Assembly: GCA_028534125.1 (NCBI GenBank)
Contig: CM052817.1
Coordinates: forward strand, 27,032,001 to 27,096,000
DNA from: Lama glama
Taxonomy: Eukaryota
Direction: 5' to 3'
Length of the DNA: 64,000 nt
Shown piece by piece: positions 3,234-57,369 of the stretch. The notes beneath the pieces were generated by a model. It had not been told where the DNA came from. It searched no databases and worked only from the letters and a program-made list of their open reading frames with translations. The translations under genes were made by a program, and so were the position numbers. Every line of letters begins with the position of its first letter. The first letter of the stretch is position 1.

Positions 3234-3389
3234 CTGATTTTGCTTTAGTCACCGTCTGTCTCAGGCTTTCACAGGAGCTTTCTTTTATGGATTTTCCATA
3301 CAGCAAACATTTCTGTTCCACGGCTGGGCAGGTCCGACCACAGCATGCTTGGCCCCGGACGGCAACAGCTCACTCAGTGCAGCTCCAAC
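3234..3389 (-). other. APBB2: APBB2 exon 2 (5' UTR, 156 nt)
   Basis: Acceptor tctaatggctcccggcctttcccctccAG|GTTGGAG has a CTAAT branch point and a pyrimidine tract. Donor is CAG|GTTGGT. Strong resemblance to the recalled human 5' UTR. Confidence 0.87.
3269..3346 (-). promoter_or_regulatory. uORF in exon 2, 25 aa MLWSDLPSRGTEMFAVWKIHKRKLL*
   Basis: ATG at 3346 in context GCCAAGC-ATG-C (A at -3), TGA at 3271-3269. Translated by hand; translation in vivo is not shown. Confidence 0.6.
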
Positions 3390-5269
3390 CTGGAGGGGAA
3401 AGGCCGGGAGCCATTAGACGGGTTCACACTCACAAACTCTCTCTCTCTCAAGATTGTATGTTTGGCAGGATAACTACTGTCTGCCAAACAGTTAACATCA
3501 TTAGTGAACAGAGACAACGGTTTATAAGGTGTCCCAAAGACAAGCTTGGGTTATTCTGAGGGGAGGGTTGAAGTATTTAACTATTACTGAAAAGGTATGA
3601 CCAAATAGTTAGGCTCTGTTTGTGGAAAATTTAAAAGCCAGATGTTTTAATTAACCACAGAAAACATGAGCTACAACTAAAGTTTCATGAACACCCTGAT
3701 CTGCCCTGTGGAAAACCACAGGAATGTTCTGGCAAGGCTCAGTCTGAATTCTTGGGACACAGAGGGCTGGAATCATTCCCCTTAGGAACTCGAACAGAAA
3801 ATTAACTTGCTCAATATGTTTAAAAAAGTAAAATGAAACCCAGATTTAATCTCAATCAAATATAAAAACATTTCAGGACTTCAAAGGCACCACCAAAAGA
3901 CACATAAGGGAAAGGTCATAAAAAAATTCCAGTGTGGTTCAGGATTTAGAATGTATTTTCAATGCAAAGTGAGTGGTGTAACAGAAAAATTTATAGGTTG
4001 AATAATCTAAAGGGGAAGCTAATCATCTTTCATTTCCTAATAGAGAAGAATGATATACGAAACCAATATTCAAGCAAGTCATAAATGTTATCAAATGTAT
4101 AATATATCCGGGCAAAAGGAATCACTTAGCTAACCTACTTCATGCCAAACCTGTGGCCTAGCCCACACTAGCTACTATGCTTTAGTAAGAGTCAAAGCAT
4201 CCAGAAAAACAGTGCTAAAATAACGTAGGCTCACTGATATTGCAGCCAGCAATTTGGAAACAGAAAACTCAAATGAGGGAATCTTATAAAAGCAATTAGT
4301 GAACAATTAAGAACTAATGGATGAAGAAGAAGTCTTTGTTAATTATAGTAAGAGTTACGACAACATCGATATGTACCAAATATTGAAAGTCTACTCAAGA
4401 AGGAATGAGATCTATGTTATGTTCTGATACTGGGTCCACAATTCTATTTCTGTACGTCAAAGCAGACCCCGTCACAAGTGTACCAAGCGTATTACATTAA
4501 ACGCCACCTTCATTTGGAAACTCTGTCCCAAAAATCATTTCAAAAGGAGCATAGCAGGGAAAAAGCAAGATATCAAATTACACGTGTGTGGTATAATCCC
4601 AGTTTTGTTCTACAAACTGAGTGCATATAATCTAAAGACACCAAGTATGAACAAAAATAGCTATTCCTGGGTCATGGAATTAGAAATTTATGTATTAATG
4701 TCTTAGTGTTTTCCAAGTTTTCTAAAATTAATATGTATTGTTTGCAGAGTTAGAATATTTTTAAGCAAGGTTTTTATTATTAAACAGTATGGGAATACAA
4801 ATCAGAATTGGCATATCTATATTAGCCTGATCAGCGGGTTTCCTCTTATCTGAATAAGAGAATAAGAGGTAAAATTTTAAAATCTTCATTTATCTGTATT
4901 CCATAATCCTTAACTTAGAAGTTCAAAACCCAAGTGTCCAATAACACTTCCAGGGCTGAACAACAACTGCTTTCCTAAAAACAAAAAATCTTTACTTATT
5001 ATTTTGAAAACTTGCCACAAAGAGACAAGAAAATCACTGTCATTCCCCTCCCTTAACTAACGCATCCAAACTTCTCTTACCACTGGCCATGTCATACAGC
5101 TGTCACTTAATTTAAAAGAGCACCTCCTGGTGTCACTTACGTTTTTACAGGAGCACAGCCCTTAGTGAACACTGTCACACTCCATTTCTGATACTCTTGG
5201 CATCTCAGAAAACACAAAACACAATGGTGGAATATTAACGCTGGCGTACTTGGCAATCCATCACTCTAA

Positions 5270-44600: not shown

Positions 44601-47512
44601 GATCTTTCCACTGAATCCCACCTGACTCTTTATCGTGGAGAGTCTGTCACTCTGCCTGTGACAAAACATTTCAACCAAAAGAAACACCATCAACACATGT
44701 CAACACGCAGAATATGCACTAATACGTACAATTAAAATGGGTAATCTGGGCTTAGCTTCCTTAAGTTTATTTGTTGGTAGTACAACACTGCTGAAGACAA
44801 ATGAACATAAAACAGTTTTTTAAATCTGCACAGAAGCTTCTAAAAAACATTCAAATCATTTGAGACATGCTGTTCCAATCAAATCTAATTCTAAATAACA
44901 AACCAAATATGTTTTAGAAGCGAATGCTTACTGAATAATAATGAAACCAGTTGAAGTTAGTCTCATATAAGATGAAACTTTCAAGTTCTATTGCTGTGCA
45001 AGCAGAGGACTGCCCTCCTCCTCAGAGGGATTTTTCTCGGGAAGCTGAAATTTATGTCAAAGATACGGACACATAAGATAATATATGTAAGAAGTTGAGT
45101 ATCAGACTTGACACACAGTAAGTATTGAACAAACGCTAGTTTCCTTAACATGGAACAGAAAAATAAGTATCACCTCCATAACTAGTAATACTTTCTTACA
45201 ATACTCTCCTAAAAGTCTGTCCTATGCCCCTGGAAAACTTAAGGTGTTATATCAGCAGGGTATTGGCTATTTTAATAGCATAACTGAAGAAGGTATAGAA
45301 ACACAACATTCCATTTATCTTAAAAGATAAATTTAGATACCGTGAAATCAGGGTAATCAGCGTAACACTGTTTTAGTATAATGGTAAGCCTTTCAAGTAT
45401 TAATTCCTGATTGATTCATGATTAATAAAAAAGAAAAAGGGGGGTGGAATTCAATGTTTGTTTCTCTGTTGGCAGGGAAAGAAAATAGTCATTAAAAAGT
45501 TGAAACATGACATAAAAAAGAGTTAACAGCTTACAGTATTCTATCTTTGTACATGTGGATTCTTACACCATTTAGTAGTCTTTCCCTAAATAATTTTTCA
45601 GGCAGTATCCTCGTTACTCCAGTTAACTGTAAAACGCCAGTATTTTACACTTCAGCACACTGATTTTTCTACTACCACTTTATAAAAGTTTTAGAAAGTG
45701 GGATTGTGCTGACTCCTTGCAGGTGAATTATTAATTAAAAGTATCCTTTTGAAGAGAGAATGAAAGTATGTTAAAAACACCTTCCCTGGAAAAGGATCTC
45801 AACTTTAGAGTCCTTTCTCAAAAATTCTGAGCAAGCATCTAGACCAAACCCAGCTTATAAAAGACCCTGAATGATTTTTCGGGGTCATCCAATAAGTTCA
45901 CGACCAAGGGACAGCTACAGAAATTTTGCATCTGTTTTCTCCCTGGAGTTCCAACTACAAGCCCATTGTATTCTACCGCCACCTGTGTTCTCAGCATTTC
46001 CCCCAGCGTGGAGGTTCCCCATCTCTCCACCAATGCCTTGTTTTCAAAACAGTGCCATTTCCAGGACTCTGCAAGTTACAATAAACAACTGCTGAGTAAA
46101 TACTGCTTTCAAGCAAACTAAAAACACAACAAAGCAGCTACCTAAGTTCATAAAGAAATCCCCCTTCCTGAAAGGTCTGCTACACGAATTCAGATATTCT
46201 TAATTGTCATAGCCATTTGAGGGCAAGATTTTAAATCCATGGTGGGGGTGGGGGGAGTCAAAGACTTAAGGGACCAAAACCAGAACAATGGATCAGAAAA
46301 GCCACTGTTTGCTTTTTAAATCAGTGAAATGTTAAAACAAATGACAAACCAAGGCCAACCTCACAAAGTTTCCTCATTTCTTGGAATTCAAACACCACTG
46401 CTGGCAGCATTTTATGACAACCCTTTAAATATTTTACCTAAGTCGTCAGGCGCAACATAAAGCGGGTGACTGAGGGACTTCTTAAAACTGGGTCCAGCCT
46501 TGTCTGAGCTTCGGACACTGACCTTAACGCTGGCCCTCCCCAACCACTCAATCCATCCACTACAGTCTGTGACAGTCGTGGCTTAAACTGAGCAGAGCTT
46601 GACTACAAAACGACCACACTCGAAATCTGATTTCTCCAATTTCTCATTAATTTTTTAATTCAAGCCCCACGCTCCTTCGGCCTTTCGCCCCTGACCCCTC
46701 AGTTCTAGATCCCTTCGCCGACGTCAAGATCACCTTTCATTGTTTCTATGGGACCCCGCTTCCCTCTCCCCGTCCAGCAATGTTTTCCTAGCACAAATGT
46801 CATTTCTAGCGTTCAACCCTCCATTCCGCCCGGCGGGCAGCAGAGTGGCTTTCAGGACCAGCTTCCCTGATTCGGTCCCCTTTGCACAGCCATTTTCTAG
46901 TTAAAACGCTCCCCGCCTCCGAGGAAGAAATGAACTTTTCCCCGTTTGATCTCGCGGCGGCTAGGCTCTGAACCCCCGAGAAGCCAGCCGGGTCTTCAAC
47001 TCCCCGGCAAGAGCGCGCTACAGCCCCAGCCGCACAGCGGAGGCCGGTGCCAGGGCAAGGGGGTGTGAGCTCTTCCCCGCGGCGCCCACCCTCACTTTTC
47101 CCTTCCGCAGCCCCTATCCGGGCGCACCCCCTCCAACCCTGTCTCCCCAGCCCCAGGCCCTGTAGACCCCCGGCTGCCGAGGAAAAGACGGCGCCGAGAA
47201 GCCGGAGGGATGGAGTCAAGGAGTGAGCCCGCAGTCGCCGTGCCACCGGCCCTGCGGCGCGGGCGCAGGGCGCACGGGACTCCGCAGCGGATGCCCGCTG
47301 CAGATGCGGTGGCAGCTGCTGCAGCTGTGGCTGCGGCTGGGCGGGCGGCAGTGGCCGCGCAGCCCTCGGCGCCGGGAGGAGAGGAGCAGCCGCCAGTGCT
47401 ACGCGCAGCCACTCGCCGATGCCGATGCCGATGCCGCAGCCCGGGTCTCTCACCAGCACTCCCGGGCAGCCCCGGGGTCCAGGGCAAAAGCAAGGGAGAA
47501 AGCAGGGCTCAC

Positions 47513-47750
47513 CGGCAGTGCGCGCGGCGTCCGCCTCGGCTCCGGCGCCCGTCAGCTCTGCTCCAGTCTCGCCCTGCCGGGAGCGCCAGAATCAGCTGCG
47601 GGTGCAGCGCACGAGCTTCCTACTTGAGACCTGGACGGGCTCCGACGACTGAGCATGCCCAGTGCCGCTCCGCGAGTCCCGCGCAGGGAGCGGCGCCGGC
47701 GAGATTCCACTTCTCCAGGCTTTGGCGGCGGCTGCGCGGAGAGGCTGGAG
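47513..47750 (-). other. APBB2: APBB2 exon 1 (5' UTR); TSS approximate
   Basis: Lies in the CpG island just downstream of GC boxes and ends at donor CCG|GTGAGC (+ strand gctcac at 47507-47512). Resembles recalled human exon 1. Confidence 0.85.
47552..47656 (-). promoter_or_regulatory. uORF in exon 1, 34 aa MLSRRSPSRSQVGSSCAAPAADSGAPGRARLEQS*
   Basis: ATG at 47656 (G at -3), TGA at 47554-47552, wholly within exon 1. Confidence 0.45.
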
Positions 47751-48403
47751 GGGCCCGACCGGGCGGGGGCCGATCCCGAGAAAGGCGGGGCCGGGGGCGG
47801 GAGCCGAGGAGGAGGGGGCGGGCCGCGCTCCTAGTGCGACCCCTGCAGGCAGAGGCTTCGGAGCCTCTCGGACTAAGGTTCCCTCATCATCTGAGAAGAT
47901 GACAGGGAGGCAACGCGCGCCAGGGAGCTGAGCCCCAACGCGATGCAGCCCGGCATCCCCTCCATGTGGCCCGGCGTCTGTCTGCACCAAAAGGCAGTTG
48001 GGTAACCTTATCTCTGGCTCGTCTTTTCTCCCACACGTCTGCACTCCCTTATAATGGGAAAATGTCCTCAGATGAGAACTGCCCACGCCTACCGAGCTGC
48101 AACTTGTAGGCGAGTTGTCCTTTCTTCTGCCTCCCTATCTAGAAGCCCAGGCAAATCACACGCACACACACACCATTCCTTGATGTAAAAATCACAGCAA
48201 GATCACCTCAAGGGAGAAACACACCTGCAGGAAAGGAAAGGCATCATTTCCTTTTCACCTCCAGGAACATTAACTGTAACTCAAATTTAAACAGACAAGC
48301 AAGGTCCTGATAAGAGAATACTCAGTAAGTAGTAATCAGTGCTCTGCCCCAGATCCTGGGAATGACATCCCCAAAGCATCCTTAGGGTTGTTCTTCACCA
48401 ATG

Positions 48404-49489: not shown

Positions 49490-49960
49490 CAGAAGTCCGG
49501 CCTGGCCACCCCCTCTCTTAGGGTCCCAGGGCGGTAAACAGCCCCGTTCCCTCCCGGCTGGGTCTCCTCTGGACCCGGAGGAAAACCCGCGGTGGAGTCC
49601 TCGGCTGGCGGGGCGGGGCGGGGCGACGCGCGCAGGCGCAGTGGCCGCCAGGTTGGGCCCAGGAGGCGCCCGGCTCCACACCTGATGCAATCAGCCTTCC
49701 GGAAACGGGTCCGGCGGCCGCACGCACGCAGGAAGCGCTTCTGCGCCCTCCCCCGGCCGCAGCGCCCTCCGCCTGGCTTCCGAGCCGCCTCGCCGCCCGG
49801 CTTCGCCCGGGGCGGAGGGCGACGTTCGGCGTCCCACTGGAAGCCCGCAGGCGGAGTCGGGAAGTCACCGCCAGAAAAAGCAAAATCCTTGGCTGCCCTA
49901 ATAGTGACGCGGAAACGGCCACCGAACGTTCCGTGGCTGCAGGAGGAAATTCCCTTAATT
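49490..49960. promoter_or_regulatory. Second (upstream) CpG island, promoter-like
   Basis: Tandem GGGGCG boxes 49607-49625, NRF1-like GCGCAGGCGCA 49630-49640, C/EBP-ATF TGATGCAAT 49683-49691, ETS-like TTCCGGAA 49697-49704, and TGACG/CGGAAA near 49904. Confidence 0.8.
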
Positions 49961-51299
49961 ATGTATTTCCAGAAAGGATGGGCTGGGGTGGGGGAGCTTT
50001 TAACCTTCCTTTGCTTGCTTGCTTCCTCCTTCGTCCTCCTCCCGAGACACAGCTTCTTTCTTCCGTACGGAAAGGGACGTTTATAGTAGTAGCCGTTTTC
50101 AGGCAGTCTGGGGAAGACTCCCTGATGCCACCCCCTCCCGTGTTGCGCCCCCCACCTCCCCCCGTCTTGCTTCATTTGTAACAGCACGTTATCTCTGCTA
50201 CATAAAGCGTTCCACCAAGCACTCATTTTATAAATAAGTAATTGGTTTCTGTATACCTCATTTCAGTTTACAAAGAAAATCATTTCTCGTTTCACCACCT
50301 CATGCAATTTTGATATCTATTGTGAGTGGATTTTTTTTCCTTCCATGCTGACTCACCCATGAATTGTTTTCCAAGGAAATGAAATATTCCAAAAGAATGT
50401 TTATAAAAAGCATGGAAGCAAAAATTAACTCTGTAAGTCCTTTAGGACCAAAGAGGGAAAGAAAAGGCAGATTCTAGGAATTTTAGTTGAAAGGATACTT
50501 AGATCATTCTAGAATCAAGTCTGGATCAACTCTTAGATGTTACAGAGGACCTCTCTGTGGCCCATAGAGGTAAATAACTTTTCCTTACTTAACAGACCAA
50601 TCAGCAGAACTGGCCCTTGAATACGGATTTGACATTTCAGTCTAATGAAAAAATATATTTGTTATTTGCACAAACACTATACAAAGTGGAAGACTTCTTT
50701 TTTTCTTCAGTCCAAAGATTACAAAGTACAAAATGGGGGCAACAAAAAGAGATCCTATTACTTATTCCTACTTCTGAAATCATTGGTCTTTAAATAGTCC
50801 TTGATGTATCCAACGACTATACAATCTATCCAGCTATTTCTAAGATAACCAGAGGCAAGGCATTAAAAATTTCAATTACAGTGGAATGGAATTCTTCAGA
50901 AATTCCAGACATGAAGAAATCTTTTAAGTCAACATTTAGAGCTTCTAGTATTTTCGCTTGATCGTGTGATGTATGAACTGTTTGAGGTTAAACCAAGGGA
51001 ATTTTAATGATCACAACAAAATGCTAGGATTATGATTCGCCACTGTAATGGTTAAAAATACTTTAACAAAATGGAAATCAAAGTGAGATACAAAAATAAC
51101 TGCAAAACTCATACCTACAATAAGAACTTTTCAGAACCCTATCTACTTTTTTATCTTGATGAATGTGTATTTCTTTTTTGGAATGTTCTGACATTTAGAG
51201 ATCTGGATAATACCTTTACTTATACAAAAATAGAGTCAAAAGAATGTCAAAATGCAGAGGTGTAAAGTACAAATTCATCACAATCAGGTACTAGTTACA

Positions 51300-55240: not shown

Positions 55241-57369
55241 TGAGATGTTATGACTCTGTGAAAGATCCTTTTTCTAGGGAATTCCACCATGGTTTTTTTT
55301 TTTTTTAAACCCTGACAGCTTCCTAGTAAGAAGAGAAAGCTAATTAAATTTCTCTATAAATTTTAACTATTAAAAATTTTTAGTAAATTTTATAAATACT
55401 TATTCCTTGGTTCTTAAACAATGATAATGCATGGATTCTATTCAGGGATTCATAGAAATGCAATTTACGAGCACGAAAGCATACAATAAAGTTCATCACA
55501 TTCTTTGTCTCTGCCTTTCCCCCAGGTTACCAAGAGTTGTTACTGCAGACACTGACATTTTATTGAACTGGCTCTGGCTACAAAAAATTTATGTTCTTAT
55601 GCTCAGGACAGTCTTCTTCCCTAGTTGTATGATATCCTCTCACCTCTTTAAAATCCTTGTTTTGCTTATCTTCAGAGAGTAGAAATTTGAGTCCTGAGTA
55701 CCAGTGTACCTGATGTCTCCCTTAATTATCTGCACAGATAAGGGCAAGAATTTAAATATTGTAAATGGAGGAAGACCATCACTTTCATGTTCAAAGGGTA
55801 TAACAAAAATAATACCTTCCAATTTTAAATTCATATAAACATAATTAAATAGAAAGGGGAAGTCTGAAATAAAGAATGTTGAAAGACCAAAGAGGTTATA
55901 AAAGAATCAGAAATCATTAACAAGAGAAAAATGCTTCACTCATACCAGAGATAGACAAGAACTATATTGCTAATTGGCAAAGGAATTGATCGTCTCCTTG
56001 TCAAGCAAAGAATGAATCATCTCCTTTCTCTACTTGTTCCTGCCAAGTAACTTCCACTTTTAAGCACCTCATTGCAAGGTCCACAGAAATAAAGTAAGTA
56101 AAGAAAGGAGGGAAGAAAGAGAGAAAGGAAGAAAATGAGGCAGGGGAGAGTGGCAGAGAGAGAGACAGATGGACAGAAAGGGAAAATGGAGAAAAAGACC
56201 TAAAGAGCTCTTTGATTTAAGAGATTATTATTATAAATAAACTTATGTCATTCAGCTAAATGAAGCCTAGCTCCTTACAAATATATGAGTAAAAAAATAG
56301 AATTTGGGAGAAGAAGAGGCATCAGTATAGGAAAAAGAAGTGTGATTAAAAGCAATAGCACAGAATTAATAATGAGCATGGAGGTTAGATATCAGAAAAA
56401 AAAGATTCTTGGTAAAGTCAATTAAATAAAAGGAAAGATTTCAAAGGGATATAATAAGAGCACCATCCCTTGAGACATTAAATATTAACCTGGACAAAGA
56501 ACTAGAATATATTTTGTAGAAAGGAATCCTTTCTGACAAGCTGGTAGATTAGCTCTAATTGATTTTTCCACCTCTAATTTCTTTGAATCTCTGAAATGCT
56601 ATTCTTAGAAGACAAATGAGTTTTCTTTGAGGATGAATTTTCCGTTTTTATTTTAATGAAATGAGTTATGATTTCTCATGAATATGGTTTCCAAGACAGT
56701 GACTTTGCAGGAAATAATTGTTATTTAGATTATGAAAGTTAAAAGGCAAAGTTACAGATACCTAAAGCTAACATAATATTGTATGTCAGCTATATTTCAA
56801 TAAAAAGGGGGGAAAAAATCAAAGTCACAGCATTGGTAAACATGATAAATTCCAATGTTTTCTTTCATTGTGCGCTAGTAGTAGTCTTGGGGAAAAAATC
56901 CCAAGAAATGAAGGAATAGGCTGCACTCCCAAAACAGGAGAGTTGGAGCAGGCAAAATTCTAAATATTCTAGCAGTTTTTACCTTTTCATTCTAGATTCT
57001 TACCCTGTCTAGAAAGTTATGACTGAGAGAAAAATATTTAGGTTCCATTGAAATGATGTCAAATTTTGTATTATTGAAGCAGGTAATAGAGGGGATAGGG
57101 GGCCATATCATCATATACATGTTATTTATTGTAAGAAAAGAGCTAAATTAGATACACACTAGAAAAAAATTTGAGTCATGCCTTTTAATTTTCTTAGGGA
57201 ACATTTTGCTTAAGAAAAGAAGAGAAAACACTAAGTGAAACAGGAGGTATACCTGTTTCTCCTTACATATATAGTGATTTTCAAAGCAGGGCTATCTACA
57301 TACTTTGATAAATGTTATTGCTTTTCTGTGAATAAAAATATGATTGAAAAAATAGTCTTGATTAAGACT

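Follow-up and report, generated by a model that had tools for sequence, protein, structure and literature searches.

The 25-codon frame on the minus strand at 3346 to 3269 is best explained as an ordinary, sequence-independent upstream open reading frame (uORF) that would lower APBB2 translation, being one of several in the same leader, and we assign a probability of roughly 0.55 to this reading. Positions refer to the window, i.e. the whole stretch of 64,000 nucleotides of Lama glama DNA that was analysed, unless another contig or stretch is named. The frame and the two further starts that lie with it are the following:

3269..3346, minus strand: 25-codon uORF, ATG at 3346, 25 residues and a TGA ending at 3269
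3269..3310, minus strand: second in-frame start, G at -3 and T at +4, 13 codons, stop in common with the 3346 frame
3285..3299, minus strand: nested 4-codon uORF in another frame, ATG at 3299, T at -3 and G at +4

Translation confirmed the minus-strand ATG, the 25 sense codons, the TGA and the peptide claimed in the first-pass annotation of this DNA, and both the second in-frame Met (ATG at 3310) and the basic KIHKRK tail are present as well. The start had been described as near-Kozak, which the A at -3 bears out and the C at +4 does not, leaving a context that is adequate rather than strong. The third ATG at 3299 and a candidate 34-codon uORF in exon 1 (see below) are additions to what had been listed before. 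The 25-mer has a mass of 3.0 kDa, a pI of 10.28 and an overall GRAVY of -0.19. In a genome search the 301 bases around the frame gave one match, and a repeat or retrocopy origin of the exon is disfavoured by this single match, although a single match is no proof of rarity.

By position, the host gene is predicted to be APBB2. The predicted exon that carries the frame sits between the 3' coding exons of APBB2 and a CpG island, and a Pfam PID match is found on the minus strand about 118 kb downstream of it. A search of the PDB with this PID exon gave only APBB1, so the identity was settled by protein search instead: the best named matches there were APBB2-named proteins, with 93-98 % identity to the exon translation in the aligned region. 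L013-L014 contains matches to three 3' exons of APBB2, covering the protein from about residue 487 on. Past the end of the window, at a distance of 10-13 kb, there are two Peptidase_C12 exons on the plus strand, belonging to a gene which we take to be UCHL1, the head-to-head neighbour of APBB2. Exons for APBB2 residues 1-486 were absent from the 200 kb below the window and were found on small unplaced contigs (e.g. C153615, C333486, C104953, C252238 and C529036); their absence is an effect of the assembly gap at G000:C2:26.92-27.03 Mb. In the large coding exon, residues 5-243 are 100 % identical to a Vicugna pacos-named protein. As the exon with the main ATG and the exon at 3234..3389 lie on different contigs, they are linked by synteny only. 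Matches to the N-terminal parts of short APBB2 isoforms named from pig and bat were also seen on the minus strand at L012:3758-3702 and 7078-7010, and would fit the presence of additional APBB2 exons, and of an internal start, in the scaffold.

The exon that carries the frame was delimited by its splice signals:

3234..3389, minus strand: predicted internal 5' leader exon of APBB2, 156 nt, from splice signals
3390..3420, minus strand: acceptor region, with a motif resembling a branch point some 25 nt upstream, pyrimidines at 16 of 20 positions, and free of AG for 28 nt before the acceptor

The acceptor AG at 3391-3390 is of textbook quality and is among 16 that pass the acceptor rule set, out of 4368 AGs on the minus strand of the window; the thresholds of this rule set were chosen with the target site in view. 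The donor GT at 3233-3232 agrees with the consensus at 7 of 9 positions, an equal match being found in 155 of 3743 GTs, and a competing donor with the same 7/9 match 19 nt upstream would give a 137-nt exon in which the 25-codon frame is still whole. Splicing of the 3234..3389 exon into APBB2 mRNA is thus predicted. Of 24 public sequencing runs listed, 20 contained some of 20 sampled words: 14 runs from two organisms contained all of them (nine of these runs being a possible source of this DNA and hence no independent support), three runs from a third organism, possibly of RNA, contained 5 of 20, two contained 2 of 20 and one metagenome 3 of 20. These matches are evidence neither of expression nor of conservation. 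None of 227 fetched APBB2-like proteins (from the best 120 of 1544 and the best 120 of 1100 matches, first 150 residues of each) had an N-terminus mapping to the exon. The sole nearby match in the protein mapping covered 8 residues (E 8.9) and lay in the upstream intron, and the standard first eight residues were present in 133 of the 146 APBB2-like proteins with a located N-terminal motif. The frame had been placed wholly inside a non-coding exon, and the splice signals together with the protein mapping uphold this placement, for an exon which is itself predicted. The number "exon 2" used for it presumably follows the human APBB2 annotation, with which the exon length of 156 nt and the 50 leader nucleotides in the start exon would agree.

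Further candidate cassette exons in the long intron are given by acceptor-donor pairs that satisfy these splice rules as well (window 38213-38064, 15700-15587, 15210-15020, 5872-5773 and 21692-21494, minus strand). No convincing leader exon between the predicted exon and the start exon was found among 113 rule-passing pairs in L002-L013, one of which would have the length of a human leader exon. A stop-interrupted stretch on the plus strand of the window (56379-56486) aligns to a hypothetical protein from a stork (36 residues, 47 % identity, E 9e-5). The N-terminus of that protein resembles a CR1/LINE fragment, and the stretch is probably an old retroposon relic.

Upstream of the exon, the putative promoter region adds a further candidate uORF to the leader:

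46501..48000, no strand assigned: CpG island, putative APBB2 promoter and first exon, GC 0.53-0.73, CpG obs/exp 0.76-0.87
47513..47760, minus strand: candidate exon 1 in the CpG island, donor candidate 47512, alternative 47453, 5' end arbitrary
47552..47656, minus strand: candidate 34-codon uORF inside exon 1, G at -3 and C at +4

In the leader predicted with the 47512 donor, the 34-codon uORF stops in exon 1, 82 nt before the 3346 ATG, and it counts only with a transcription start upstream of 47656. The predicted exons 1 and 2 together hold at least four upstream ATGs, three of them with a purine at -3, while the main APBB2 ATG (C153615:174; L022:124-192) has a weak context with T at both -3 and +4. 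Four or more upstream ATGs and a weak main ATG fit a translational-control cassette, which the first-pass annotation had offered as its milder alternative. The TGA of the 25-codon frame ends 35 nt before the predicted donor and precedes the main ORF. Another TGA is in frame two codons before the main ATG and the 50 leader nucleotides of the start exon contain no ATG, so the 25-codon frame is unable to extend APBB2 via that exon. With the predicted donor no fusion to APBB2 would arise, and an in-frame extension through the normal start exon was rejected. The next in-frame Met lies in the large coding exon, with G at +4, and a few fetched APBB2 isoforms start at the Met corresponding to it. A second CpG island (window 49501-50000) is seen about 2 kb upstream of the first, as a possible alternative or divergent promoter.

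As an ordinary uORF, the frame would act in the following way. Scanning subunits coming from the CpG-island start would pass or translate the exon-1 uORF, and a share of them would initiate at 3346, with its A at -3; those leaking past could start at 3310 or 3299. Translation from any of these three starts would terminate within the 3234..3389 exon, and APBB2 synthesis would be left to ribosomes which bypass all upstream ATGs by leaky scanning or which reinitiate over the remaining leader. Selection would act on the presence and the spacing of start and stop, not on the residues, and APBB2 output would be tuned by whether the exon is included or skipped, or by the choice of a downstream promoter. 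In addition, a stop ahead of further exon junctions could reduce the amount of mRNA. It is known that uORFs are widespread repressors for which the act of translation usually matters over the product, that a uORF of 25 codons still permits some reinitiation, and that termination before later junctions may trigger mRNA decay. Repression by translation rather than by the product is also described for uORFs in the accessible text of PMC7889888 and 10.1101/2025.07.07.663426. Against the ordinary uORF stand the facts that such ORFs are common by chance and that splicing of the exon and translation of the frame are both predictions. The uncommon basic tail and a codon score above that of most intronic ORFs lean slightly towards a selected peptide.

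The frequency of such ORFs bears most directly on the alternative that the exon is real and the frame in it a chance one, its ATG being mostly bypassed or its translation inconsequential, and any conservation being that of a typical leader exon. As a sequence the 25-codon frame is near chance expectation. An ATG frame of at least 25 codons closing within 156 nt was found in 59 of 410 window tiles and in 1075 of 5000 dinucleotide shuffles of the exon, and 383 of 3000 shuffles contained such a frame with a purine at -3. When 1184 ORFs of 20-30 residues were taken as background, 437 had a second Met and 610 a purine at -3, and the C at +4 of the 3346 start points in the same direction. However, it is well established that an A at -3 is normally enough for substantial initiation, and an upstream ATG in a scanned leader would seldom be fully neutral. 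We consider a frame without consequence unlikely.

It is a good deal less probable than not, and in our view rather improbable, that constraint acts at the RNA level, i.e. that splicing-enhancer or other RNA-binding motifs, or production of a circular RNA, account for the retention of the central part of the exon, with the purine-rich tail as the motif and the peptide as a by-product. The strong acceptor, the moderate donor and the rival donor 19 nt upstream would make up an enhancer-dependent setting, the tail codons are rich in A and G, and circAPBB2 is known from the literature, at the level of the accessible text. On the other hand, nothing places the exon in circular APBB2 RNAs, and no RNA structure signal was found when the exon (z -0.16) and the uORF (z -1.5) were folded; with such unremarkable folding energies, RNA structure was rejected as a conserved feature.

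Least probable, and very doubtful to us, is a selected peptide, in which the nascent 25-mer would stall the ribosome near the stop via its basic tail or a 3 kDa peptide would act in trans. We give an equally low standing to the full proposal of a conserved-peptide uORF common to mammals, in which stalling of the terminating ribosome by the basic C-terminus of the 25-mer would place APBB2 dosage on a nascent-peptide switch in a cassette exon, and in which initiation at a GUG of this exon, upon direct splicing to the large coding exon, might add 29 residues to the N-terminus of APBB2. The basic tail is a feature that speaks for the peptide: four K/R in six residues occurred in 26 of the 1184 background ORFs, for a feature picked post hoc, and second Met, purine at -3 and basic tail occurred jointly in 5 of the 1184. 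The tail alone is uncommon, yet any A/G-rich stretch also yields one. Codon use was scored with a model built from 23 coding pieces of the same genome (1641 codons), which separated coding from intronic ORFs with an AUC of 0.946. The score of the 25-codon frame (-0.77) lies between the coding and intronic medians (11.92 and -10.92, respectively); 7 of 57 coding chunks scored as low, and a score as high was reached by 15 of 182 intronic ORFs, or by 6 of 65 when these were matched for GC. It is also 12 bits below the coding median and near the scores of the other two frames on the same bases (-3.36 and -1.68). The codon score is thus intermediate and not frame-specific.

A membrane or signal segment is typical of many stable micropeptides. 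No hydrophobic, membrane or signal-like segment was found in the 25-mer, in which the best 11-residue GRAVY was 0.27. Together with the codon score this gives little support for peptide-level selection among the computed features. Conservation with respect to the human 5' leader had been claimed in the first-pass annotation, with about two amino-acid changes in the peptide and more change in the flanks. Such conservation would favour the peptide, but a single comparison with human, with 75 nt set against flanks of 43 and 35 nt, should have almost no power to distinguish peptide selection from nucleotide constraint. In addition, peptide-dependent uORFs are a rare subset according to the accessible text of PMC9305500, which concerns plants.

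The exon contains another minus-strand frame (3234-3369), which runs for 45 codons up to the donor without a stop and is phase-compatible with the large coding exon of APBB2, a phase match being a one-in-three coincidence. Were the two exons joined directly, initiation at a GTG at 3321 (G at -3 and at +4) would provide APBB2 with an alternative N-terminus of 29 residues.

No description of an APBB2 uORF, microprotein or leader translation was found in the literature at the level of titles and the starts of abstracts, supplements being outside this scope, which also counts against a selected peptide; entries for the frame may already exist in the supplements of Ribo-seq and CPuORF catalogues. 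If the frame is ordinary, it is one more unreported uORF cluster in a very common class, and it suggests that the APBB2 protein level is partly set at translation, which would aid the reading of leader variants and of promoter choice. If the peptide is selected, it would be one of the few mammalian uORFs with a sequence-dependent effect, and an APP-binding adaptor would be linked to a nascent-peptide switch.

Three known systems can be compared with the frame. Non-AUG N-terminal extensions from leaders, as presented in the accessible text of PMC11317171, have their likeness in the 45-codon open, phase-compatible frame of the same exon, but the 25-codon frame differs from them in that it stops in the exon, the TGA blocks the start-exon route and the count among the fetched proteins was 0/227. 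With the conserved-peptide uORFs of animals (CPuORFs), as far as the ESUCA survey is accessible (PMC7530721), the frame has in common a length within 20-40 codons and basic residues near the stop. Such uORFs are defined by amino-acid conservation and sequence-dependent stalling, whereas the codon signal of the APBB2 frame is not specific to the frame. AMD1, DDIT3/CHOP and AZIN1 are examples of conserved-peptide uORFs. For canonical AUG uORFs, the GENCODE Ribo-seq uORF class is one comparison. Another is given by multi-exon mammalian leaders such as that of PKD1 with its conserved uORFs (PMC11810096, accessible text), with which the APBB2 leader shares a short AUG frame that closes ahead of the main start, clustered upstream AUGs, a signalling or adaptor gene and a long spliced leader, the APBB2 frame differing in being known from sequence alone. 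The APBB2 frame is initiated by AUG and has its own stop, which is the criterion of a canonical AUG uORF.
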